Source: Escherichia phage EK010
Sequence record: NC_070981.1
Direction: 5' to 3' (one strand)
Length of the DNA: 64,000 bases
The position numbers were made by a program, and so were the translations under genes. The notes beneath the pieces are model-generated. The model made no database searches, had not been told where the DNA came from, and worked only from the letters and a program-made list of their open reading frames with translations. How positions within the stretch are numbered: position 1 is the first letter of the stretch; each line of letters starts with the position of its first letter. Of the stretch, positions 1,318 through 48,092 are shown one piece after another.

Positions 1318-2268
1318 ATGTCAATCTCCGCATCGATTGCTCCGGTAACACCAGCAGAGAACTTCGGTGAGTCAGTGTTCAAAGGAAGAGCTTGCTTTGG
1401 TACTTTTAACTGTATGCACATGTACTCTGTTACAGACATTAATGGTGAAAGTCTTAACCAAACAAGCCTTCGTGACAGAACTTCAGAAATTGAAGTTATT
1501 AACTTCTGGCCTCACAATTTTTATGGCGTACCAGCTAAAGATATCGAAAATGCTTTAGTTGAAGCAACAGACATTTTTAATTCAATGTCTTGCTATAAAG
1601 ATATGTTCTCTGTCACTTCGGTGAATTCAATTGCCGTGAACCTTCGAAACCATCCAGCAGACAAGGTGTTTACTGGACTAATGACCATCCGTAGCTATTT
1701 GGATGGTGATTTTAATGGAATGGAGTTCCTTCAGGAAGGCGTACAAGACAAGGAAGAGTTGCTTAAGCGACAACGAATCGGTTTAGCTCTACGCCTAGCT
1801 GGTTTAAGTCGTAACTTCTTTGGTCGCTGGTGTTATAGTAATGACGTAGACTCAACTGATGAGTCAGCAGCGACTTATTTTGATGGTGACATGAGTGCAA
1901 TTGCATTTCTGCCACTAATTTGCACCACTGATGAATTTTCTGAAAACGTATGGGTTCAGAATGTGTTCGGTGTTGATGATAACCTAGATGGTTATGTACG
2001 AAACCATAATGATGGAGTTCTCCGTCGTATGGCACGTCGTCGTGACCAAGACCCTGACCATTACGAGAGTATGAGTGAATGGTTACGTCTCTGGTCAACT
2101 TGTGCAGGTCACAAGAGAGAAGTATTAGATCAGCGTATGGATAGAATTACTGTTCGTAGTTTTATTGAACGTCTGATGCAAGCAGTACCTTCCTCAATGA
2201 CACCAGAAGAAGCTGGTGCCCGTGTTGTTTCCCTTTTTGATGAACTCGTGGAGTATTACAATGACTAA
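1318..2268 (+). CDS. hypothetical early protein (316 aa)
   Basis: ATG ORF; GAGG RBS; tightly packed after previous gene. Confidence 0.6.
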   Translation: MSISASIAPVTPAENFGESVFKGRACFGTFNCMHMYSVTDINGESLNQTSLRDRTSEIEVINFWPHNFYGVPAKDIENALVEATDIFNSMSCYKDMFSVTSVNSIAVNLRNHPADKVFTGLMTIRSYLDGDFNGMEFLQEGVQDKEELLKRQRIGLALRLAGLSRNFFGRWCYSNDVDSTDESAATYFDGDMSAIAFLPLICTTDEFSENVWVQNVFGVDDNLDGYVRNHNDGVLRRMARRRDQDPDHYESMSEWLRLWSTCAGHKREVLDQRMDRITVRSFIERLMQAVPSSMTPEEAGARVVSLFDELVEYYND

Positions 2269-3067
2269 GCGCGCTTTCCTTATTGGCTCTGACCCTGAAA
2301 TGTTTGTTCGTACTGCTTCCGGTATTATCACCTCTGTGGCTGGTAAGCTGGGCTGTTCTAAAGATAATAAAATTGATCTGGCTCCTGATGTTCGTCTTCA
2401 AGAAGACAACGTTCTGGCTGAGTTTGATATTAACCCACAGAAAGGGTTTGAAGCGTTTGATGATAATATTCAGCGTGGTATTGATCTGACTAACAAAGTT
2501 CTCAATGAACGTGGCATGGAGGCAGCACTTGGGATTAGCTCTCATGTGTTCACTTCAGAAGAACTTGAATCATTCCACCCGTCAGCTTTTGTATTTGGCT
2601 GTACTCCTGATTTCAATGCCTTCACTGGACAAAAGAACCCTTCACCAGTCGCAACCGATAAGGGTTTGCGTACTGCTGGGGGTCATGTGCACCTTGGTGT
2701 CTCCGGGACTTTAGAGATTACTCGACAAACTCAAATGATGTTGGGTGTGTTGTGTGATTACTTCCTGTCCTTGCCAGCTGTGATCATGGATAAAGACACT
2801 CGTCGTAAAGAGTTGTACGGAAAGGCTTCTGCCATTCGCTACAAAGATTACGGTATTGAATATCGTTCTCTTTCTAACTTCTGGATTGGTGATAAGTCCA
2901 CTCGCAAGTTTGTTTATGAGCAAGTGGATAAGGTTGTTCAGGGTTGTGATATGGAAGTGTTGATGTCACTTCACTCTCGCCTTCCAATTGAAAAGCTTCA
3001 TAACATCATCAACAGCAACGATGTTAAAGAAGCGGATAAATTCTCCTCTAAACTCCAGATTGTATAA
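2261..3067 (+). CDS. candidate glutamine-synthetase-like amidoligase (COOH-NH2 ligase), divergent
   Basis: Start moved to internal ATG with GGAG RBS 7 nt upstream; N-terminal 'GSDPEMF' resembles the GS 'GPEPEFF' carboxylate motif; later 'GGHVHLG' H-x-H motif. Confidence 0.35.
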   Translation: MTKRAFLIGSDPEMFVRTASGIITSVAGKLGCSKDNKIDLAPDVRLQEDNVLAEFDINPQKGFEAFDDNIQRGIDLTNKVLNERGMEAALGISSHVFTSEELESFHPSAFVFGCTPDFNAFTGQKNPSPVATDKGLRTAGGHVHLGVSGTLEITRQTQMMLGVLCDYFLSLPAVIMDKDTRRKELYGKASAIRYKDYGIEYRSLSNFWIGDKSTRKFVYEQVDKVVQGCDMEVLMSLHSRLPIEKLHNIINSNDVKEADKFSSKLQIV

Positions 3068-3076
3068 GGTGATATT

Positions 3077-3703
3077 ATGAGCTTGTTAAGAGATTTTCAA
3101 CACTATTATTGTGGAACATGGATTGCTCAGCGATCACCTGATGGTAAAAACCTCCCTCTATATGTGCTTGATGTTCGTCAGCAAGGTAACTTTGATATCG
3201 ACGACTACTCACACGACGCTGAAATGTCTTTAGTGTTTGAGGCGGAACGCTGGACTAAAAACTCTGAAGGTCAGTTTGAACGTCAGATTGTTAGTAATAT
3301 CCCAGTGTTTGATCACAGCCTCATTCTAGAGTCTCCAGATGTAGGATACCTTCAGCATGGTAATAACATGGTGAGCTGGACCCATATCAACCCTGTTCGT
3401 CAGCGAGCTAAAGGCTTGATGGGGAATAAACTTCGTGGTGCTGCACCTTCTCTCGGACGTTCGATTCCGGGTGATTTGGTGTACAACTTGTTTAATCCAG
3501 AGTTTGAAGGGTTGGTTACTCGTTTCATCTATATCAACCCTGTCGATGGAAAAGTGTATTACAAAGGGGCTTACGTTGGAAACGTGCTTCTTGAAGCTGG
3601 CTATGGCGACAACGGTCGCCAATCTTTAAACCTTCTGGAGAAGTTCAAGCATATTTCTTCAGACCTGTCATCATATAATGTAGAGTTGGTGGAATCATTA
3701 TGA
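3077..3703 (+). CDS. hypothetical protein (208 aa)
   Basis: ATG ORF with AAGGTGA RBS; sits between the two amidoligase-like genes. Confidence 0.6.
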   Translation: MSLLRDFQHYYCGTWIAQRSPDGKNLPLYVLDVRQQGNFDIDDYSHDAEMSLVFEAERWTKNSEGQFERQIVSNIPVFDHSLILESPDVGYLQHGNNMVSWTHINPVRQRAKGLMGNKLRGAAPSLGRSIPGDLVYNLFNPEFEGLVTRFIYINPVDGKVYYKGAYVGNVLLEAGYGDNGRQSLNLLEKFKHISSDLSSYNVELVESL

Positions 3704-4800
3704 CAACCGTAGCACAAGTTTTTGGATACCGTAACCCTCGCTTATCTGAACCACATCCAAGTATTGCTTTTCAGTGTGGTGTAGGTATTGAGTTAGAAGT
3801 CGAAGGTACAATTGACATTGACGCTGATATGTGGGTTTGTACTGAAGATGGCTCTCTTCGTGATGGTTGTGAATTAGTGTGTGCACGACCTTACAACGGT
3901 GAAGAATTACTTCGTGCTATTAACAATCTGAGTGAAGCAGTACAGGACTCTGGAGCCGAGGGAACTTGGCGCTGCTCCACTCACGTTCATATGGATATGC
4001 GGGACGCTGATAGTAATATCCTTAAGAAAGTTATTCTTGGGTGGACGTTCTATGAAAAGATGATGTTCAAATGTTCTGGATATCATCGTTACCGTAGTAA
4101 CTTCTGCCCAGCTTTTGCTGTTGTTCAAGCTCAAGTTATGAATGCTTCATCAGCGTTCAACCGAGATGGGGAAGATTTCTTCCGTACTCTTGTTAATAGC
4201 TGGGACAAGTATACCTCCCTTAACCTGTTGCCTCTATCTCAGTTTGGTTCTGTTGAGTTTCGTATTTCAGAGCCGAAGTGGAAAAAGAGTCAGCTGCTAA
4301 ATCTGGTCAATCGCTTCTTGGTTCTCAAGAAACTGGCTGTTGAATATGCAGATTTAGATAATGAAGCTTATGTTGAGAAGTTGAATGAGCTGCGCTTCGC
4401 TCCTATGATTCAACATCTACCTCTAGACTATACTCCAAGAGATAGCGATCTCACTGAAGGGTATCGTCTTGCCCGTGATATTCTGTTCTGTCGTGAGCAA
4501 TCTGTAACTTTGGTTGGTCGTGTTCGTGTGCAACAGACTGGCCCTGATGGTGAAGTCCTTATCAACTTACGTGATATGAATGACTTCTATGGTTTCTTGG
4601 GATATGTGCGCGGTAATGCCAACACTGTCTATGAAGAGATCATGACCTACTACACTCCTCAGATTGAAAGCACTCGAATCGCAACGGTTCGTGAAATTCG
4701 TCACATGTTTGCATTGATGCGTGAATCAGGTAGCAGTGATAATAACATCACTGATTACATTCCAGACCATCTGGAAATGCAATTAGAACGACTGCTGTAA
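3700..4800 (+). CDS. amidoligase (glutamine-synthetase-like COOH-NH2 ligase family)
   Basis: Motifs 'GIELEVEG' (E-x-E), 'EDGSL', 'GCELV', 'STHVHMD' (H-x-H); start overlaps previous stop (ATGA). Confidence 0.5.
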   Translation: MTTVAQVFGYRNPRLSEPHPSIAFQCGVGIELEVEGTIDIDADMWVCTEDGSLRDGCELVCARPYNGEELLRAINNLSEAVQDSGAEGTWRCSTHVHMDMRDADSNILKKVILGWTFYEKMMFKCSGYHRYRSNFCPAFAVVQAQVMNASSAFNRDGEDFFRTLVNSWDKYTSLNLLPLSQFGSVEFRISEPKWKKSQLLNLVNRFLVLKKLAVEYADLDNEAYVEKLNELRFAPMIQHLPLDYTPRDSDLTEGYRLARDILFCREQSVTLVGRVRVQQTGPDGEVLINLRDMNDFYGFLGYVRGNANTVYEEIMTYYTPQIESTRIATVREIRHMFALMRESGSSDNNITDYIPDHLEMQLERLL

Positions 4801-4877
4801 CACAATGGGCGCTCTGATAAAGGGCGCATTTAAAGGTTAATTAGATGAAAGGGTTTACCCTTCAGGTGGATTAGAAA

Positions 4878-6911
4878 ATTTGTGGTATCGTATTAGCTGG
4901 CGGCAACATGACCTCAACAGATTTGGATATTTTCAACCAACTTCTGTATGCTGGTGTTTTCCGGGGACAGCACTCAACTGGTGTGTTTGGTCAGCGTAAA
5001 GGTGAAAAGCAAGTCTTCTCTTATAAAGAAGCTCTTCCTTCTTATGCTTTTATGCTCCAGACAGAATATACAAATATTACCAAAGGGCTTACGAACTACG
5101 TGGTTCCTCCTTCGTGGATTGTTGGTCACAGCCGACATGCCACTCGTGGGGCTGTCAATGCTCGAAATGCTCACCCATTTACTCACGGGGATATTACTCT
5201 GGTTCATAATGGAACCCTGTTAGATCAAGATCTCCTTCCTGACAGTAAGCGTTTCGAAGTTGATAGTGAAAACATCTGCCACTCAATTAATACCATTGGA
5301 GCAGCAGAGACTATCCAAAAACTGGATGGTGCATTCACTTTAATCTGGCATGACGCCAAAGATAACACGCTTCACATTATCCGTAATGATGAGCGTCCTT
5401 TCCACCTAGCCCGTTGTGGTTTAGATTGGTTTGGGGCTTCTGAAGAAGCTATGCTTATGTGGATTTTAGAGCGTTCTAAATCCCACAAGAACCGTATCAA
5501 TGACCACTTCGAGTGTAAAGTGGGAACTGAGTATATCTTTGATGTGTCTAACAGTCGTATGACTCTGGTTCAAGAGGTGGAGCACAAGCTTCCGGTTTTT
5601 ACGGTAACGAGTCGCTGGGGCGGCTATTACTCGAACTCCTCTCTATATCAGAACCAACAGACAAACAAATCAAGCAGCAGCACAAGCGACATTTACGGAA
5701 ACAAAGACGACAAGCCCGGCGTGACAAGCGGAGACATTCGTCGTCGTAAAGCGATTGAAGACCAGAACAAACTGGCTGCCGATCGTGGTCTTCCTTATCG
5801 TCGTGATGGTCGTGTGGATATTATTCCTCACGAGTTCCATGCTTATAACAACACAGATCGTGGTAAGATGGTTGGTTACATCTACGACGATAAAGCCCAA
5901 GAGTATGTCGAAGGGGATGTTCACAACGTAGCCAAAGATGAATATCTTAAGGCTCTTGAAAACCCAAAGGTAGTATATCGCGGGACGATTGCTTGTATCT
6001 CCGAAGTGGACAGTATGATTCGCCTCGTACTAACTTCAGGGCTGTTTGTTGATGCTACAGATAAGGAGCCTCAAAGCACTACTGCTGATTTTGATGATGA
6101 TATCCCTTTTGATGCAGAGGACTCCTTCATCACTAAAAATGGTGTAGAAGTCACTCGTAAGTTCTGGGAATCTCACTCTCATGGTGATTGTGGTGGTTGT
6201 GATAAGCACATTGACTGGAAAGATGCTCGTAAGGCTGTGTTTGCTTATCAAGCATACTGGCATCCAGAATGCTTCGAAGCGTTATCTAAAACCTCTGAAG
6301 ATGAAGAAGATGTGCCTTTGGGTGTATGTGCTATCTGTGGTGAAGTCAAGACTGATTTCGAGTTTGACAACGAAATGAGTAAACTTCGTGGTGAAGACGT
6401 TTGTTATATCTGCTCCAAAGAAATCAAAGATAAAGTAAAGAATGTTACTCTATCTGAAGGTTATATTTGGACTAAAGCAGTAGACACAACCAACCCACGT
6501 CGTCCTGAAGTAGCTGTTCGTGTTGATGAACGTATGCTTAGCCGTATGATCGTAATGGTTAGCTCAGCAAAACGTTCAGGGGATATCACACTTGCAGATG
6601 TTCCTAATTCGTATTTGGAAAAACGTGGTGGTGATACTTATGCCATCTCTGTTTATGGTCCAAAGAATGCCCCAAAGGAGGTACCCGCTGAGAAAGCGGA
6701 GACATTTCCAGAAAAGTCAACCTCTCTCCGAAAAACAGTTGTCAGTTACGATGGACAACGAACAGCTGAGTTTACAAAAGCCCTCTGGACTTCAATTGGG
6801 TTTTGTGCAGTCTGTTATAAACAAATTCCGTGGCGTGATGCAGAAACTTGCTCACTAAACAAAGAAAATAGAGTGATCTGTAATTCAGATTACTGTAAAG
6901 GTAAACACTAA
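4878..6911 (+). CDS. class-II (Ntn) glutamine amidotransferase-domain protein with C-terminal Cys-rich zinc-ribbon-like motifs; probable AUU start
   Basis: Track ORF starts at ATG 4908, but in frame just upstream is stop-AAA-ATT-TGT-GGT-ATC-GTA giving '(I)CGIVLAGGNM...', the GAT-II N-terminal Cys-nucleophile signature; AGGTGGA RBS at 4864-4870, 7 nt before ATT 4878; downstream 'FRGQHSTG' and 'HNGTL' fit PurF/GlmS-type domain; C-terminus has three C-x2-C pairs. Confidence 0.55.
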   Translation: MCGIVLAGGNMTSTDLDIFNQLLYAGVFRGQHSTGVFGQRKGEKQVFSYKEALPSYAFMLQTEYTNITKGLTNYVVPPSWIVGHSRHATRGAVNARNAHPFTHGDITLVHNGTLLDQDLLPDSKRFEVDSENICHSINTIGAAETIQKLDGAFTLIWHDAKDNTLHIIRNDERPFHLARCGLDWFGASEEAMLMWILERSKSHKNRINDHFECKVGTEYIFDVSNSRMTLVQEVEHKLPVFTVTSRWGGYYSNSSLYQNQQTNKSSSSTSDIYGNKDDKPGVTSGDIRRRKAIEDQNKLAADRGLPYRRDGRVDIIPHEFHAYNNTDRGKMVGYIYDDKAQEYVEGDVHNVAKDEYLKALENPKVVYRGTIACISEVDSMIRLVLTSGLFVDATDKEPQSTTADFDDDIPFDAEDSFITKNGVEVTRKFWESHSHGDCGGCDKHIDWKDARKAVFAYQAYWHPECFEALSKTSEDEEDVPLGVCAICGEVKTDFEFDNEMSKLRGEDVCYICSKEIKDKVKNVTLSEGYIWTKAVDTTNPRRPEVAVRVDERMLSRMIVMVSSAKRSGDITLADVPNSYLEKRGGDTYAISVYGPKNAPKEVPAEKAETFPEKSTSLRKTVVSYDGQRTAEFTKALWTSIGFCAVCYKQIPWRDAETCSLNKENRVICNSDYCKGKH

Positions 6912-26494: not shown

Positions 26495-26560
26495 AATAGA
26501 GAATCAAAGTCCTAGGAGTCCTCAACCTAAATCAAGGATTTCCTTAATTCTCTATTTTTA
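26495..26560 (+). terminator. long inverted repeat with T-run (possible terminator or operator)
   Basis: AATAGAGAAT (26495-26504) and ATTCTCTATT (26547-26556) 42 nt apart, followed by TTTTTA. Confidence 0.3.
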
Positions 26561-26652
26561 TCTCGCAGGTGTCTCCTGCCCTTCGGTACTTGCAAGGGTT
26601 ACGATGATTGCCCAATATACAAGCCTGCAATAGCTTTACTAGCTATACCATA

Positions 26653-26661
26653 TATACATTA
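26653..26661 (-). promoter_or_regulatory. promoter-like motif TAATGTATA in reverse orientation
   Basis: Same 9-mer on the opposite strand in the same intergenic region, pointing leftwards into non-coding DNA. Confidence 0.25.
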
Positions 26662-26723
26662 CTACTTACTGTTATCTACTACCAAAAAGGTTATAGTATA
26701 ATAGAACCTTATCTGTATAAGTG

Positions 26724-26732
26724 TAATGTATA
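26724..26732 (+). promoter_or_regulatory. promoter-like motif TAATGTATA
   Basis: Intergenic, 59 nt upstream of SSB-like gene; TATAAT-like hexamer at 26697-26702 nearby. Confidence 0.4.
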
Positions 26733-26791
26733 TAGTATACAAACCGCTCAAAGAGAGCAACAATCTTAAATCTATATAAGGAAATATTAAT

Positions 26792-27532
26792 ATGTCTATG
26801 ATCCCTGAACTGTCTGTATCCCGTAAATCCAACTACGATGTAATCCCTGATGGTGAGTACGAAGCACGTATTGTTCGTGTTGTAGGTTTGGGTGTTCACA
26901 ATCGTGACCCTTGGATTGACCCTAAAACCAAAGCAGTTACTCCTAAGAACCCAGCTTTCCGTATGGACTTAGCTTTTGAGCTGATTGGCGTAGATGCAAC
27001 AGGGACTGATAATGAAGGCAAACCTCTGGACCCTCGCCCTGCTTGCCAGTTTAAATCTTTCGATGTAAATCCACGAGCTAAGAACTCTGGTATTCTGAAT
27101 CTGATTAAAATGATCGACCCAAGTGTTCAAGCACTGAAAGGTGATTTGGGTTGGTTTAAAGATATGCTGTTAGGTCAGCCTGTTAACATTCTGGTTAATT
27201 CCTATGTAAACAAAGCTGGTGAGAAGAAAAACTCTATTAAGAGTATCACTCCAATTCCGACCAAATATCGTGATGCTGTAGGTGCTCCTCGTAGTGAGTT
27301 GATCTTCTTCGAACCGTATGCTGAGACTGATGCTAACTTAGCTGCTTATCAAGCAATCTTCCCATTCCAACGTAACCTCTTGACTCAAGCTAACGATGCT
27401 AAGAACATTCCTCTGGCTGGTCGTGAAGTTACCAAAGCTTCTGACACTGAACAGAAGGACGCAACTCCGAGTATCCCTACTATTAATGAAGAGCCGCAGT
27501 CTACCTTTGAAGAGGACGACTCTCCTTTCTGA
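26792..27532 (+). CDS. single-stranded DNA-binding protein-like
   Basis: Acidic C-terminal tail ending 'EEDDSPF' (compare bacterial SSB 'DDDIPF'); follows a promoter-rich intergenic region. Confidence 0.5.
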   Translation: MSMIPELSVSRKSNYDVIPDGEYEARIVRVVGLGVHNRDPWIDPKTKAVTPKNPAFRMDLAFELIGVDATGTDNEGKPLDPRPACQFKSFDVNPRAKNSGILNLIKMIDPSVQALKGDLGWFKDMLLGQPVNILVNSYVNKAGEKKNSIKSITPIPTKYRDAVGAPRSELIFFEPYAETDANLAAYQAIFPFQRNLLTQANDAKNIPLAGREVTKASDTEQKDATPSIPTINEEPQSTFEEDDSPF

Positions 27533-27555
27533 TGAATCTCTCCTTGTAATAGCTT

Positions 27556-27578
27556 AGCCACCTTCGGGTGGCTTTTTT
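27556..27578 (+). terminator. rho-independent terminator (UUCG tetraloop)
   Basis: AGCCACC-TTCG-GGTGGCT followed by TTTTTT, after SSB-like gene. Confidence 0.7.
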
Positions 27579-27591
27579 CGTTGGAGTTAAA

Positions 27592-27933
27592 ATGGAAAAG
27601 CTTCAAAACAATATAGGCTTTCTTATTTTCACAGCTCTTATTTTCTTTGGTGGAATGAAGTTTGAGCAATATCGAAACGATAGCAGTGCTCTTGACCAAG
27701 AGAAGAAACAACAAGAGATAGAGATTGAGAGAGCCAAGGCTGCTGATGAAGTAGCTCAGAAAGTTCTTACCGGTTTAACTAACTGGAAGAAGAACACGGA
27801 AACTATTTACAAAGAGATGCATTATGAAAAGACTAAGCCAGTTTTTTACAATGTGTGTGCTAGCGATGAGTATGTCTCTTTATTTAACCAAAGACAGGAA
27901 GAAGCTAAGAGGGTTTTAAAATCGAAGGAATAG
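27592..27933 (+). CDS. membrane protein with N-terminal TM helix and helical periplasmic region (i-spanin-like)
   Basis: ATG 27592 with GGAG RBS; 'IGFLIFTALIFFGG' TM segment then charged helical region. Confidence 0.4.
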   Translation: MEKLQNNIGFLIFTALIFFGGMKFEQYRNDSSALDQEKKQQEIEIERAKAADEVAQKVLTGLTNWKKNTETIYKEMHYEKTKPVFYNVCASDEYVSLFNQRQEEAKRVLKSKE

Positions 27934-27956
27934 AAGAGTTTTTATCCTATGATGAA

Positions 27957-28415
27957 ATGTCAGGAAAACTAACGTGGAGAAGCTCTGAAAAGAAGAGCAA
28001 TCAATGGAACTCTAGGTTTGCTGGAAAAGAGGCTGGCTGTTTGATAGATGCTGGATACATTGTTGTGAGGTTTAATGGGAAAGCACATAAAGCTCACAGA
28101 GTGGCTTGGTATTTAAAAACAGGAGAAATCCCTGATACTGATATCGACCACAAAGATCAGATTAAATCTAACAATTCTTGGACCAACCTGAGAAAAGCAA
28201 CCAATGCGCAGAATCAGATGAATACATCTGCTCAGAAGAATTCTATAACAGGTATAAAAGGTGTCGGATATAGAAAGGATGTTAACAAGTGGACTGCTCG
28301 AATAGGGTTTGAGGATAAAGTTATTTGGCTTGGTTTTCATGATACACTGGAAGGAGCTAAGTGTGCATATAAAGAAAAAGCTATTGAGTTGTACGGGGAT
28401 TTTGCTAGCTTTTAG
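27957..28415 (+). CDS. HNH homing endonuclease with AP2-like domain
   Basis: 'IDHKDQIKSNNSWTNLRKATNAQN' plus AP2-like region; conserved N-terminal motif continues upstream of the first ATG. Confidence 0.6.
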   Translation: MSGKLTWRSSEKKSNQWNSRFAGKEAGCLIDAGYIVVRFNGKAHKAHRVAWYLKTGEIPDTDIDHKDQIKSNNSWTNLRKATNAQNQMNTSAQKNSITGIKGVGYRKDVNKWTARIGFEDKVIWLGFHDTLEGAKCAYKEKAIELYGDFASF

Positions 28416-28629
28416 TTTATCAGCTTGTTCAACGAGCGACAACAGCAGGCAATCAATGCCCTTACCAACAAACCTAAAAGCTGAATGTAGAGTTGACCTA
28501 CCTCTTTTAGAGAGTGCTCAAGGGAAGGCACTAGCCACTACGTTGGAGTGGTATCAGGACCAGTACACAGAATGTGCTGCTAATCACAATGGATTGTTAG
28601 AAGCTCTGAAAGAGCGTGGAATAGAATAA
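28363..28629 (+). CDS. lipoprotein (candidate o-spanin or exclusion lipoprotein), GTG start
   Basis: GTG 28363 with AAGGAG RBS 6 nt upstream; signal peptide 'MHIKKKLLSCTGILLAFSLSAC' with L-S-A-C lipobox. Confidence 0.45.
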   Translation: MHIKKKLLSCTGILLAFSLSACSTSDNSRQSMPLPTNLKAECRVDLPLLESAQGKALATTLEWYQDQYTECAANHNGLLEALKERGIE

Positions 28630-28967
28630 TGGAAGTCCTTAATTTCTACAAAGAGGGGTTGAAGATTCCAGAAGGCGCTATTTACATAGGAAGATATAGT
28701 GCCAAGCATGGTCTACCACAATCTAAGTATCACAACCCAATAAAGCTCCAAGAGGGTGAGCCAAGAGGTTCTACTCTGGATAAGTATAGGAAATATTTAT
28801 GGGGTGAGATAAAAGCTGGCAGAATAACTGTGGAAGAGCTTGCAAATCTGTATGGAACAAACCTTGTGTGTTATTGTAAGCCCAAACCTTGTCATGGGGA
28901 TATCCTTATGGCTGCTATAAAATGGGCAAAAGAAGAAATGGATAATGCTATAACTAAGGAAAGATGA
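28629..28967 (+). CDS. hypothetical protein with '[13 protein letters not shown]' motif
   Basis: ATG overlapping upstream stop. Confidence 0.5.
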
Positions 28968-29617
28968 TGGCGAAGAAGACAACACCTACAAGATATCGAA
29001 TTCATGGAATCCCTATTAAGTATATCTCAAACTATGAAGAGTTTTACAGAGTGAACTGGAAAGTGGTTCACAAGTTCTTCATGTATGATATCAGGGATTA
29101 TCATGAAGCAGAAGATGTGGCACAAGAAGTGCTCTTGAATGCTTGGAGATTTGTCTTCGCTAAGCAGGATGAGAGAGTCCTAGAGGATGAGAAAGACCAA
29201 GAGCATATGACTTATCGAGTCAAGAACATTATCTGGTCGATTCGTTCTAATCGTCAGACAGTTGGAGACCGACGTATCTACTCTATTCCAGAGGCTGATA
29301 TGTTTAGACCTCCTGAGATGAACTCATGGGAAAGTCCTTTAGAAATTGCGATGGATAAGCATGATTCTACTGGAGACCCATTCTTGGAATCTAGAATCTT
29401 TTTCTTCTTCCAAGACCTGAGTGACATTATGGAAAACCGTAAGATGGCAAGCATGTTCTCAATGCTCTTTCTCGGCATCCCACATGATCACATCCAGCAG
29501 GAGCTGGGAATTTCACACGGAACCTTCTATCGCCGTTATGCAGAGAATCGTGATCTGTATGAAGCGGTAGTAGAGAAGCACTTTGATAAAGAAGATCTTC
29601 AAGGGATGATTCAATAA
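28964..29617 (+). CDS. sigma-70-family (ECF-like) sigma factor
   Basis: Region 2-like '[16 protein letters not shown]' and region 4-like HTH '[21 protein letters not shown]'. Confidence 0.6.
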
Positions 29618-30213
29618 TGAGTAAACCATTAGTAGTAATTCTGAATGGACCACCGGGTTGTGGTAAAGATACAATCGCTAATGCTTGGCTAGAATTCACT
29701 AAAGAGAACATTGAATTTAAGCCACATATAAAGGCTTTTAAGGAGCCTATGTACCGAGTTGCTGCTGCTGCATTAGGTATTCCTATTGACGAGTTCATGG
29801 AGCTGTATAGCGACCGTGAGTGGAAAGAACGAAGCCGTCCTGAATGGGGCGGTAAGTCAGTTCGAGATTTGATGATTGCAACTAGTGAGAGCTACTTGAA
29901 GCCAATGTTTGGTGATACCTGTATGGGTAAGTTGGCTGTTAGTAGTATCAAACGACAACTGTTAGGACAGAAAGATGTTATCGTCTTCTCTGATGGTGGA
30001 TTCAAAGCAGAAGTTTCAGAACTGGAAGAACAATTCCATGTTCAAGTAGTTCAGATTCTTCGTGATGGTTGCACTTTTGAAGGAGACTCTCGGTCTTACA
30101 TCGAAGGCAGTCAGAGAAACACATATTACCTAGTAAACGATTCTACTGTAGAAGATGCAATAGACTATTTAAATTGGATTGTTGTACGGACACGGAGAGA
30201 TCTCTATGTCTGA
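29617..30213 (+). CDS. P-loop nucleotide kinase (dNMP-kinase-like)
   Basis: Walker A 'LNGPPGCGKDT'. Confidence 0.5.
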   Translation: MSKPLVVILNGPPGCGKDTIANAWLEFTKENIEFKPHIKAFKEPMYRVAAAALGIPIDEFMELYSDREWKERSRPEWGGKSVRDLMIATSESYLKPMFGDTCMGKLAVSSIKRQLLGQKDVIVFSDGGFKAEVSELEEQFHVQVVQILRDGCTFEGDSRSYIEGSQRNTYYLVNDSTVEDAIDYLNWIVVRTRRDLYV

Positions 30214-31027
30214 TGTAATTTATCCTGAAGTAGCAATTGTGGATGCAGATGTTCTGCGATATGAAGTCGGTGCTCTTACACAAGAGCATCCTTTTCTAGA
30301 CACAGGTCGTGTTCCAGTTGATTATGGATTCTTGATTGAACGACTTCAACATAAAATAGATGTAATCATTGCAAGGTCTGGTTGCGAGAAAACAATCTTT
30401 TACTTCAGCGAAGGTGGTAATTTTCGGTTTGATATTGCTAAGCAGCAAGGTTATAAAGCTAATCGACCACTGGGAGAAAGACCTCATCATTGGCAGAACG
30501 TTAGTGATTATATTAAAGAAAATTACGAGTATGTAGAAGTTTTTGGGAGAGAGGCAGATGATGCCTTAGCTGAAAGACAGAGACGTGATAAGAACACTAT
30601 CATTTGCACCCGTGATAAAGATTTGTTAATCACCCCCGGATGGCATTACCGTTGGGCTTGCGGGGAGAGACAGAAAGAAGTACCTCCTCATTATGTATCA
30701 GAGGAAGTAGCATGGCAGAACTTCTTCTACCAGATGTTGATTGGGGATAGGACAGATAATATTCCCGGATGTGGTGAGAAGGTTGAAATGATGTGGGGTG
30801 GCAACCTAGTGATGCGTCGTCAAGGTGTTGGCAGCAAGGCTGCAATCGAACTTATTGAGAAGGTATTCGATAAGTGGACTCTTTATCATATTATACGAAT
30901 GGAATACTATAAGAGGTTCGAGGAAGAAGCAGAAGCTAAGATGTTAGAAAACGCTCGATTGCTCTTCGTTGGACAAGCTGAAGGCGACCTCTTTGATTGG
31001 TCGTGGTTAGATAAAACTTGGGAATAA
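30206..31027 (+). CDS. 5'-3' exonuclease / flap endonuclease
   Basis: 'CTRDKDLLI' resembles the Pol I 5'-exo 'TGDKDLLQL' motif; ATG 30206 with GGAGAG RBS. Confidence 0.55.
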   Translation: MSDVIYPEVAIVDADVLRYEVGALTQEHPFLDTGRVPVDYGFLIERLQHKIDVIIARSGCEKTIFYFSEGGNFRFDIAKQQGYKANRPLGERPHHWQNVSDYIKENYEYVEVFGREADDALAERQRRDKNTIICTRDKDLLITPGWHYRWACGERQKEVPPHYVSEEVAWQNFFYQMLIGDRTDNIPGCGEKVEMMWGGNLVMRRQGVGSKAAIELIEKVFDKWTLYHIIRMEYYKRFEEEAEAKMLENARLLFVGQAEGDLFDWSWLDKTWE

Positions 31028-31037
31028 GGATATTATA

Positions 31038-31229
31038 ATGGGTAAATTTGACTATCGTTCGTATGATGAAAACTCCTCTACTCGTGAATCTCGTAAAGAT
31101 CAAAAGATTAAGCACCAAGCATTTGATCGTCGCACAGGCCGTATCCCTCGTGCTGATAAAGAATCACACCGAGTCAATAAACGCATTTGGGAAGACGCTG
31201 ATATGGATGTAGGTTATGGCGAAAGCTGA
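31038..31229 (+). CDS. basic hypothetical protein (63 aa)
   Basis: ATG ORF; AAGGA RBS. Confidence 0.45.
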   Translation: MGKFDYRSYDENSSTRESRKDQKIKHQAFDRRTGRIPRADKESHRVNKRIWEDADMDVGYGES

Positions 31230-31620
31230 GAAGACAAGATGCTCTGGTCAGTGGACTGAAGCACGTTATAACTCCTTCATTAAGTCAGGGATTCGTTCTC
31301 TGACTAGGAAATGGAAACCTATGTTTGATTCTCTCAAAGAGGCTCAGACAGAACGTAAAATCAACCCTAAAACTGGCAAAATGGCAATGCATTACAAGTG
31401 CGCCATGTGTGGTAATGATTCTCCTCTTAAAGACGTAGCAGTAGACCATATAGAGCCTATTGTTCCAGTGGACCATGAAGCTACTTGGGATGAAATCATC
31501 GAGAGGGCTTTAGTTGAGAAAGATGGTTTTCAAGTCTTATGCAAAGAGCCTTGCCATAAGATAAAAACTAAGGAAGAGAATGATGCAAGACGCGAATTTA
31601 AAAAATCTAGAGACTTCTGA
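31216..31620 (+). CDS. HNH nuclease
   Basis: 'YKCAMCG...DHIEPIVPVDHEATWDEIIERALVEKDGFQVLCKEPCH' C-x2-C / DH / N / CH HNH motif. Confidence 0.6.
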   Translation: MAKAEKTRCSGQWTEARYNSFIKSGIRSLTRKWKPMFDSLKEAQTERKINPKTGKMAMHYKCAMCGNDSPLKDVAVDHIEPIVPVDHEATWDEIIERALVEKDGFQVLCKEPCHKIKTKEENDARREFKKSRDF

Positions 31621-47348: not shown

Positions 47349-47840
47349 TTAATATTTTCCTGTGGTGTATAGGTCTGCTTCTGCAACCCTACGATTGTGA
47401 AGTCCCGGACTCTGTTGTTTTACACCCTTAACAGTTATCTTATCCCAACGCAAGAATTCTGAATAAACATCACCCTTTACGTCCCCGTTAATCACTTTCC
47501 TAAGTTTTGAGGTTGATAGAGCACCACCACCAACATTAAAGTTGAACGAGGTGACAGCATCAAACTCATGGGCTAACATAGGAACTCTTATGTTTTTCTG
47601 AGTAGCACGAACAGAGTCTTGTGTGTCTCTATCTAGCAGAGCTAGACAATCCTCTATAGAATACGTTAATCCTTGTCTTACTGGATACCCATTCATATCG
47701 CGCGTAGCCCCTACACATATTGTCCAGATTCCAGCGGAGTCTTTATAGGCTTTAGTTCTCATGCCTTCATGTTTCATGATAAACTCCATACCGTCTGGAC
47801 TCAGGCTCATTTGTACAGGTGGCAATGCGATAGCGTCCAT
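47349..47840 (-). CDS. endolysin, T4-lysozyme-like (GH24)
   Basis: 'KHEGMRTKAYKDSAGIWTICVG' matches the T4 lysozyme catalytic E/D/T block; start at ATG 47840 with AAGGAG RBS (track start is TTG 47873). Confidence 0.65.
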   Translation of the reverse strand: MDAIALPPVQMSLSPDGMEFIMKHEGMRTKAYKDSAGIWTICVGATRDMNGYPVRQGLTYSIEDCLALLDRDTQDSVRATQKNIRVPMLAHEFDAVTSFNFNVGGGALSTSKLRKVINGDVKGDVYSEFLRWDKITVKGVKQQSPGLHNRRVAEADLYTTGKY

Positions 47841-47873
47841 CTTGACCTCCTTTTTGTTATTATGATAGGTCAA

Positions 47874-48092
47874 TTAAGGAAGAATTTTTCTCAGAGCTGA
47901 AGATTGAGCATCTGGGCAAATAACAACCAAATTATTTTGAATGGTCCTTTGTTTACATTGAGAACTGAGCTTCTCTACGGGAGCTTCTATAACAGAATGA
48001 GAGCTTACCGCATTTACAGGCACTGCCGTAGAAATCACAAAACCAGTCCCTAAGCAAGCAAGACCATAAGTTACTTGTTTCATCATTTTCAT
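47874..48092 (-). CDS. small membrane/secreted protein next to endolysin (candidate holin or spanin component)
   Basis: AAGGAG RBS 6 nt upstream; hydrophobic segment 'YGLACLGTGFVISTAVPV'. Confidence 0.35.
   Translation of the reverse strand: MKMMKQVTYGLACLGTGFVISTAVPVNAVSSHSVIEAPVEKLSSQCKQRTIQNNLVVICPDAQSSALRKILP

Follow-up and report, generated by a model that had tools for sequence, protein, structure and literature searches.

A predicted spanin gene pair of a Kuravirus and the HNH endonuclease cassette lodged in its overlap

How can a mobile endonuclease gene come to lie between a membrane protein gene and a lipoprotein gene and leave both of them readable? This question is raised by positions 27592-28629 of Escherichia phage EK010 (sequence record NC_070981.1), within a stretch of 64,000 nucleotides (nt) that is called the window here and whose numbering is used throughout. 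Positions 26500-30500 of the window are 100% identical to Escherichia phage E20-1 (OP293233), a Kuravirus (Gordonclarkvirinae; phiEco32-like C3 podophage), and the locus is referred to by that name. An earlier note, written from the sequence without database searches, had proposed a split spanin pair, composed of an inner-membrane spanin (i-spanin) together with a lipoprotein spanin of the outer membrane (o-spanin), with a mobile endonuclease inserted between the genes, or else a pair of exclusion factors. In this study, the locus was compared with its relatives. We consider it quite probable that it holds a Kuravirus two-component spanin pair, the overlap of which was invaded by a free-standing HNH-AP2 gene that brought replacement ends for both spanins.

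In this reading, a 545-nt cassette would have inserted at the lipobox codons of the overlap, where an insert alone would truncate both genes. The first 57 nt of the cassette would act as a substitute i-spanin C-terminus. The last ~60 nt would supply a substitute start, Shine-Dalgarno sequence, and signal peptide, written in the +1 frame over the C-terminal codons of the nuclease. Without a new C-terminus for the i-spanin and a new signal peptide for the o-spanin, both encoded in the insert, neither spanin gene would survive. An overlapped pair would thus be turned into a "separated" one around the nuclease gene, with no need for RNA splicing. The features concerned are as follows; lengths of proteins are in amino acids (aa), and pN/pS is the ratio of nonsynonymous to synonymous differences.

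27592-27933, plus strand: predicted i-spanin gene, 113 aa (PHROG 1152, hydropathy, AlphaFold2, SpaninDB orthologues)
27592-27876, plus strand: resident pre-insertion part of the i-spanin gene, up to V95 (GTC 27874-27876), 93% identical to phage 4E8
27877-28421, plus strand: putative homing-endonuclease cassette, 545 nt, placed by the anchor-length difference and the drop in identity; boundary ambiguous by 2 nt (TC)
27877-27933, plus strand: cassette-borne i-spanin tail SLFNQRQEEAKRVLKSKE, 57 nt, a recoded version of SLFNERQQQA(A/I)(S/N)ALTNKPKS by codon comparison and pN/pS
27909-28415, plus strand: frame of the HNH_3 and AP2 homing endonuclease, annotated ATG at 27957 (PHROG 99, Pfam HNH_3)
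28351-28356, plus strand: Shine-Dalgarno sequence AAGGAG of the o-spanin gene, within the HNH codons for E-G-A
28363-28629, plus strand: predicted o-spanin gene, 88 aa (start, lipobox, PHROG 2425)
28363-28415, plus strand: dual-coding segment, with the HNH C-terminus CAYKEKAIELYGDFASF* and, in the +1 frame, most of the o-spanin signal peptide VHIKKKLLSCTGILLAFS
27824-27919, plus strand: relic of the 5' end of the old embedded o-spanin gene, MKRLSQFFTMCVLAMSMS, running into the cassette (..LYLTKDRKKLRGF*), lipobox Cys lost (compare 4E8)
28422-28484, plus strand: remnant of the old i-spanin tail frame, SLFNERQQQAINALTNKPKS*, open, 3' of the HNH stop and in the HNH frame

The gene pair with and without the insert

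A 5-nt spacer divides the i-spanin ATG (27592) from the GGAG 5' of it, at 27583-27586. The product has a single hydrophobic segment at residues 8-22 (IGFLIFTALIFFGGM; Kyte-Doolittle value 2.27 over 15 aa, a heuristic measure) and one Cys, C89; past residue 30, 36% of its residues are charged. AlphaFold2 placed helices at residues 2-75, 78-89, and 92-111, with a predicted local distance difference test (pLDDT) score of 80.9. The protein matched PHROG 1152, "Rz-like spanin", with E=3.6e-34. By these signals, it is predicted to be a type II inner-membrane protein with a single N-terminal transmembrane domain.

The o-spanin GTG at 28363 follows its AAGGAG with a 6-nt spacer. The N-terminus of the protein reads (M)HIKKKLLSCTGILLAFSLSAC|STSDNS.., with a KKK n-region, the h-region LLSCTGILLAFSL, and the lipobox LSAC at residues 19-22, which fits the pattern [LVI][ASTVI][GAS]C; this prediction was made by regular expression and hydropathy only. 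A signal peptide of 21 aa for signal peptidase II (SPII) is thereby predicted, with the lipobox Cys codon at 28426-28428 and Ser at position +2. The mature lipoprotein would be 67 aa long, with further Cys residues at precursor positions 42 and 71. It is identical to the mature o-spanin of phage Paul. The protein matched PHROG 2425 (E=1e-25) and, weakly, PHROG 456, "Rz-like spanin" (E=1.5e-3). A Pfam search of both spanins gave no significant family. The features that the earlier note had read from the letters, namely an N-terminal transmembrane helix followed by a charged helical domain in the first protein, and a GTG start, a perfect AAGGAG, and an L-S-A-C lipobox in the second, were all recovered.

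The locus was common to 97 phage records. An HNH gene was present in seven of them (E20-1, KM01, Bas86, Bas87, PAS59, and two records of SU7) and in an eighth locus, the metagenome contig L016. The other records, about 90 of the 97, were HNH-free with an identical overlapped spanin junction, and an IMG/VR scan with the i-spanin gave five loci, each of them HNH-free. In HNH-free 4E8, Paul, phiEco32, and ECBP2, the gene for the i-spanin overlaps that for the o-spanin by 116 nt. The o-spanin has its start, signal peptide, and lipobox there in the +1 frame of the i-spanin 3' end (MKRLSQFF..MSAC), and the embedded start reads MKRLSQFFTMCVLAMSMSAC.. or MRKLNQFFIMSALVMSMSAC.. in these four phages.

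Several of these relatives have already been called as spanin carriers. SpaninDB lists the orthologous pairs of phiEco32, ECBP2, NJ01, and KBNP1711 as overlapped two-component spanins and puts the i-spanin with the FelixO1/JH2 i-spanin family. The Paul record has an i-spanin/o-spanin annotation with LipoP support. In SU7, which carries the same insertion (RefSeq NC_070980), gp033, gp032, and gp031 are annotated as Rz-like spanin, HNH endonuclease, and O-spanin, respectively. On homology, topology signals, and gene architecture, the assignment of the pair as spanins is supported. The helical i-spanin, anchored in the inner membrane, would bind the o-spanin lipoprotein in the outer membrane, and the complex would disrupt the outer membrane once holin and endolysin have acted.

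The second reading of the earlier note, in which the pair are superinfection-exclusion or other envelope factors like T5 Llp or Cor, turns partly on the position of the genes. Two further features are needed here.

47349-48092, minus strand: holin and endolysin (PHROG 11161, E=7e-41; PHROG 7, E=8e-46)
27556-27580, plus strand: intrinsic terminator with a stem of 7 base pairs (bp), GC-rich, and a T-run, kept in all relatives

The holin (47874-48092) and the endolysin (47349-47840) lie on the minus strand within the tail-gene cluster, ~19 kilobases (kb) from the spanins, so the earlier note was right to place the endolysin on the other arm. The lysis genes of this phage group are thus spread over two transcription arms. 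The terminator is strong and stands 18 nt 5' of the i-spanin ATG; transcription of the spanin genes may come from read-through or from a promoter that does not match sigma-70.

This distance from holin and endolysin, the place behind a terminator, and the neighborhood of early/middle-type genes (phosphoesterase, sigma factor, and deoxynucleoside monophosphate kinase) could be taken to speak for exclusion factors. In addition, the spanin function of the family is a prediction from sequence, and PHROG 2425 is labelled "unknown function". Nothing specific was found in favor of this reading, and it seems very unlikely. The i-spanin matches an Rz-like spanin PHROG and falls into the FelixO1/JH2 grouping of SpaninDB. 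A lipoprotein start embedded in the +1 frame of a gene for a type II membrane protein is a hallmark of spanins. A helical periplasmic domain, Cys residues in both partners, and a +2 residue compatible with outer-membrane sorting point the same way, and no further spanin candidate was seen beside the holin and endolysin.

The cassette and the ends it supplies

From anchor to anchor, the locus measured 704 nt in HNH-bearing and 159 nt in HNH-free phages, which gives an insert of 545 nt in six phages; the L016 insert is 546 nt and was compared by gapped alignment (1-nt indel). The insert was always found at ..GAGTATGT(C)|(A)GCTTGTTC.., between ..GAG TAT GTC and AGC TTG TTC.., which is inside the ancestral overlap, at the lipobox codons. 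The sequence on either side of it is unaltered HNH-free sequence. The comparison with HNH-free relatives that the earlier note had suggested bears out a split spanin pair with a mobile endonuclease, also on the evidence of PHROG, SpaninDB, Paul, and SU7; its picture needs amending in that the nuclease entered a 116-nt overlap at one precise site and not the space between separate genes. The 429 nt that now separate the spanin genes in E20-1 are due to the cassette.

The cassette is coding throughout and occurs in three alleles, one in E20-1 and KM01, one in L016, and one in SU7, PAS59, Bas86, and Bas87. The alleles are as low as 66% identical, within flanks that are 94-100% identical. Between E20-1 and SU7, identity was 99% up to the junction, 57-66% in the single-coded cassette, 77% in the dual-coding segment, and 95% after the cassette; between E20-1 and SU7/Bas87, it was 99-100% before the junction, 54-67% in the cassette, and 94-95% after it. 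Because identity in the cassette is far below that of the flanks, the cassette is much older than the flanks.

At the left end, all three alleles encode an i-spanin tail of 18 aa, which reads SLFNQRQEEAKRVLKSKE, KLFNTRQEEAKRVLKSKE, or GLFNERQQQAAEALKLKN. These tails resemble the ancestral SLFNERQQQAASALTNKPKS in protein and differ from it at nearly every synonymous site. Among the 20 codon pairs of the SU7 and 4E8 tails (cassette stop included), 4 are identical, 10 synonymous, and 6 nonsynonymous. The pN/pS between cassette and ancestral tails is ~0.2-0.35, with synonymous sites saturated.

At the right end, the HNH gene and the o-spanin gene overlap by 53 nt (28363-28415) in different frames. 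Between alleles, identity is 77-79% in this dual-coding segment and 66% where HNH alone is encoded. All alleles have [A/G]TG at the same alignment column with a purine-rich run 6-9 nt upstream. The signal peptides, VHIKKKLLSCTGILLAFSLSAC, VHTKKKLLSCLGILLAANLTAC, or MLTKKKQKSCLVIFLASSLMAC, share a K-rich n-region and a hydrophobic h-region and end in a lipobox (LSAC, LTAC, or LMAC) that is read in frame with the resident Cys. In E20-1, the cassette signal peptide joins in frame to the resident Cys codon at 28426-28428. The nuclease ends in ..AYKEKAIELYGDFASF, which can be aligned with the C-termini of distant HNH_3/AP2 homologues; the signal peptide is therefore overprinted on native nuclease and is not a copy of the old one. 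As judged from the alignments, the arrangement of the spanin open reading frames is beyond chance: the frames, start, Shine-Dalgarno sequence, and lipobox are kept in alleles that differ by up to 34%.

Traces of the old junction are seen on both sides of the insert. The relic of the embedded o-spanin 5' end is still an open reading frame with its own ribosome-binding site and would give a hydrophobic peptide of 31 aa without the lipobox Cys; a TAG at the junction shortens it to 17 aa in the SU7-type allele. On the other side, the old i-spanin tail frame is intact because the same bases encode the N-terminus of the mature o-spanin.

A very unlikely reading is that the 545 nt are a group I intron that splices itself and carries an HNH open reading frame, with the ancestral overlapped mRNA restored on splicing. 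Joining 27876 to 28422 does restore both old frames exactly, and the Bas86/Bas87 annotation, given as a join, implies such splicing. HNH open reading frames are also well known in phage group I introns. However, a cmscan search of positions 27300-28900 (Rfam 15, E<=10) found no Intron_gpI; all it gave was a group II fragment at chance level, which lies outside the insert. Of the 545 nt, 507 are taken up by the HNH frame (27909-28415), and the ~38 nt that remain leave no room for a ribozyme core. A group I intron has U as the last base of the 5' exon and G as the last base of the intron; at the junction that would restore the frames here, these bases are C (E20-1) or A (SU7) in the exon and C or T in the insert. 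The i-spanin tail, start codon, and lipobox appear to be selected as coding sequence, and an intron would need none of them. Across 34% divergence, the only indel is 1 nt long and belongs to the metagenome allele, as fits coding sequence.

The direction of the change could also be turned around, with the separated, HNH-containing arrangement ancestral and the overlap formed by deletion of the nuclease. Both directions are held possible for T5 and Shivani (Kongari et al., 2018; PMC6139136), and alleles far older than their flanks (66% vs 94-100%) indicate an ancient cassette lineage. Nevertheless, this reversal is highly unlikely. Every HNH-bearing genome holds the complete HNH-free sequence split in two, as insertion predicts. 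The same overlapped junction is found in 90 of the 97 records and in all flank lineages, and repeated base-perfect deletions would be needed to produce it. Moreover, the cassette is found in three flank backgrounds with sharp boundaries.

The nuclease gene and its mobility

Positions 27957-28415 matched PHROG 99 (E=2e-57); the match to Pfam HNH_3 (E=1e-15) passes the curated cutoff. The coordinates, the HNH domain, and the overlap with the lipoprotein start that the earlier note had given for an HNH/AP2 endonuclease gene hold; its AP2 part is less secure, with a match of 27 bits, under the Pfam curated cutoff of 33.3. The invariant HNH residues (DH..N..N..N) are intact, at D80, H81, N89, N93, N102, and N105 as numbered from 27909. 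The pN/pS of the gene between alleles is about 0.2-0.3 throughout, and the first 34 conserved codons (LSYDE..AGC, 27942-28043) are under purifying selection, with pN/pS of 0.14-0.34.

Where translation of the nuclease begins is less obvious. The frame is open from 27909, and the conserved N-terminal motif FLSYDE lies 5' of ATG 27957; E20-1 has an ATG only after LSYDE. In the SU7-type and L016 alleles, no ATG, GTG, or TTG was found 5' of the conserved N-terminal codons. Every allele has an in-frame ATT or ATC near the i-spanin stop, with a Shine-Dalgarno-like run 7-8 nt 5' of it; in E20-1, this is ATC 27921 after AAGAGGG (27907-27913). In L016, the HNH frame is the i-spanin frame, broken only by a TAG, and in the other alleles it is the -1 frame. 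The HNH protein could plausibly start by weak initiation at a non-AUG codon, or by reinitiation coupled to translation of the i-spanin; candidate starts in E20-1 are ATC 27921, ATA 27930, and ATG 27957. The start region lies at 27906-27960 of the window, 2895-2960 of locus L004, and 1385-1440 of L016.

Two other routes into the nuclease frame were considered and rejected. A -1 frameshift from the i-spanin at T_TTA_AAA in E20-1 is contradicted by the SU7-type allele, which lacks the heptamer, and would give a periplasmic nuclease anchored in the membrane, which makes little sense. Readthrough of the TAG in L016 would not be general, as the other alleles have the nuclease in the -1 frame.

The flanks of the cassette bear on its movement. 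E20-1 and KM01 are 96% identical in the cassette and 79% in the left flank. The flanks of KM01 are Paul-type (left 99% and right 98% identical to Paul), and those of E20-1 are mosaic, 4E8-type on the left (93%) and Paul-type on the right (98%). The SU7-type allele stands in 4E8-type flanks, and L016 in KBNP1711-type flanks. One allele thus occurs with several kinds of flank, and one kind of flank with several alleles. This mixing, together with the change of flank type right at the cassette, is consistent with the outcome expected of homing with co-conversion. Conservation within the locus is highest in the overlap, with 83% invariant columns against 59-66% elsewhere, and the overlap would be a sensible target for a homing enzyme. 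In co-infection, the nuclease would cut or nick HNH-free genomes at or near this doubly constrained overlap, and repair would copy the cassette in, co-converting flanking markers. The putative cut site in HNH-free Kuravirus DNA is near GATGAGTATGTCAGCTTGTTCAA, and a fragment with GATGAGTATGTCAGCTTGTTCAACGAGCGACAACAGCAGG from HNH-free 4E8 or phiEco32 is a candidate target.

Alternatively, the cassette could be a fossil, the nuclease of which is no longer mobile or expressed and is kept since its 3' end supplies the o-spanin signal peptide. The o-spanin does depend on the last 53 nt of the HNH gene, the gene lacks a conserved canonical start codon, and the HNH protein, at 152-168 aa, is shorter than its distant homologues of 180-187 aa. 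Purifying selection over the whole HNH frame, the N-terminal 34 codons included (pN/pS 0.14-0.34), and invariant catalytic residues argue against a fossil, and recent transfer is indicated by E20-1 with its mosaic flanks and by the presence of a single allele in two backgrounds. We regard the fossil reading as quite unlikely.

A number of points weigh against an invaded spanin overlap as we read it. In the literature on any Kuravirus, no experiment on spanin function was found. The activity and the target site of the nuclease are putative, and the absence of a canonical HNH start codon conserved across alleles is awkward for an expressed enzyme. The intact old tail frame at 28422-28484 would also be expected under the intron model, though dual coding explains it equally. 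A synonymous shuffle of the HNH 3' end yielded a signal-peptide-like +1 frame in 2-17% of cases, 2% with uniform codons and 17% with local codon usage. Because this test is weak, it was not used as evidence of selection, and the case for selected ends rests on conservation across alleles. Row-by-row inspection covered 60 of the 97 records.

Annotation of the locus varies between records. The E20-1 GenBank entry calls the i-spanin "hypothetical" and begins the o-spanin at a late ATG (28456), by which the signal peptide is lost; in the E20-1, KM01, and PAS59 records, the spanins are missed or the o-spanin start is too late. In Bas86 and Bas87 of the BASEL set (loci L012 and L011, 801-1693), the "Rz-like spanin" is written as two joined pieces on either side of the HNH gene, and the start given for the o-spanin is late; the sequence evidence is more in line with an i-spanin that is not spliced and that ends within the cassette. 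No discussion of the locus was found in the SU7 paper or the BASEL paper. Elsewhere in the E20-1 GenBank record, two labels are likely misannotations: ORF28 (window 31216-31620) is a "terminase small subunit", the RefSeq SU7 orthologue of which is an HNH endonuclease, and four coding sequences in a row (record positions 1939-5789) are all "terminase large subunit". The slot right after the o-spanin stop (28629-28967) varies as well. It holds a 112-aa PHROG 464 gene in E20-1, a 74-aa open reading frame in 4E8 and SU7, a macro-domain (Appr-1-p) gene in Paul and phiEco32, and a 146-aa open reading frame of the same size in KM01, the product labels of which look shifted.

Comparison with known systems and meaning of the locus

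The closest precedent is in the T5 family. The T5 spanin genes overlap by 70 bp, and those of Salmonella phage Shivani and Yersinia phage phiR201 are ~666-700 bp apart with a GIY-YIG homing endonuclease gene between them (Kongari et al., 2018; PMC6139136). Between T5 and these two phages, the i-spanins differ at the extreme C-terminus only, and the o-spanins in the signal peptide only. It was pointed out in the same study that a new o-spanin N-terminus must still encode the lipoylation signal, and the direction of the change was left open. The authors also reported too-late start calls for many o-spanins (Kongari et al., 2018).

The E20-1 locus is an independent second instance of the T5/Shivani situation and no new kind. 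In both, an overlapped pair has become one separated by a free-standing homing endonuclease at the i-spanin 3' end, and in Shivani, as in E20-1, the nuclease gene overlaps both neighbors, by 20 nt (i-spanin) and 13 nt (o-spanin). The components are unrelated. The spanins belong to PHROG 739/812 in the T5 family and to PHROG 1152/2425 in E20-1, and the nuclease to PHROG 681 (GIY-YIG according to Kongari et al., 2018) in the former, against HNH_3 and AP2 in the latter. E20-1 further differs from the T5 family in its shorter cassette (545 nt) and in the overprinting of almost all of its signal peptide (53 nt) on the nuclease C-terminus. For E20-1, unlike the T5 family, there is a record of mobility and selection in the mosaic flanks and the three diverged alleles, and a case can be made for insertion as the direction.

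Other systems resemble E20-1 in part. The spanins of phiEco32, ECBP2, NJ01, and KBNP1711 are the same proteins, as far as i-spanin residues 1-95 and the mature o-spanin are concerned; E20-1 differs in its HNH cassette, the last 18 aa of the i-spanin, and the signal peptide, and belongs to the separated class. SU7 shares the insertion site, cassette length, and frame arrangement with E20-1 and carries another cassette allele, with 66% nucleotide identity. Like E20-1, lambda Rz/Rz1 combines a helical type II inner-membrane protein with a small outer-membrane lipoprotein, and the o-spanin is in the +1 frame. In lambda, however, the pair is embedded and lies within the lysis cassette, whereas the E20-1 spanins are 19 kb from holin and endolysin. 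In Aeromonas phage Aeh1, nrdA is split by mobE, a gene-in-pieces formed by a free-standing homing endonuclease in T4-like phages. As in E20-1, the nuclease gene is in coding sequence and function is kept through a new stop and start at the flanks of the insert. In nrdA, one protein has become two polypeptides; in E20-1, two overlapping genes have been pulled apart and each is whole.

What the locus adds to the T5 case is an argument for the direction of insertion, three alleles that point to selection on the cassette ends, an overprinted signal peptide, and mosaic flanks. It would be a second and better-resolved case in which a homing endonuclease colonizes the overlap of two genes and kills neither, with spanin, nuclease, and phage families that all differ. 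It speaks for insertion as the way in which overlapped spanins became separated, and it indicates that a lipoprotein signal peptide can be made by overprinting on a nuclease gene. The spanin calls of E20-1, KM01, and PAS59 can be corrected in the databases, as can the splicing implied by Bas86/Bas87. For phage engineering, the last 18 residues of the i-spanin and the whole o-spanin signal peptide appear to be replaceable.

A bolder proposal, which we offer tentatively and hold to be possible but on the whole doubtful, is that the cassette forms a "prosthetic" homing element, complete in itself, which has evolved to enter a doubly coding overlap with replacement ends and whose nuclease is translated without a canonical start, by weak AUU/AUC initiation or by reinitiation coupled to the i-spanin. 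If this were true, nuclease dosage and timing would be tied to spanin expression. If it were general, homing would favor the junctions of overlapping genes as escape-proof sites, and the change of spanin pairs from overlapped to separated would be driven repeatedly by homing endonucleases.

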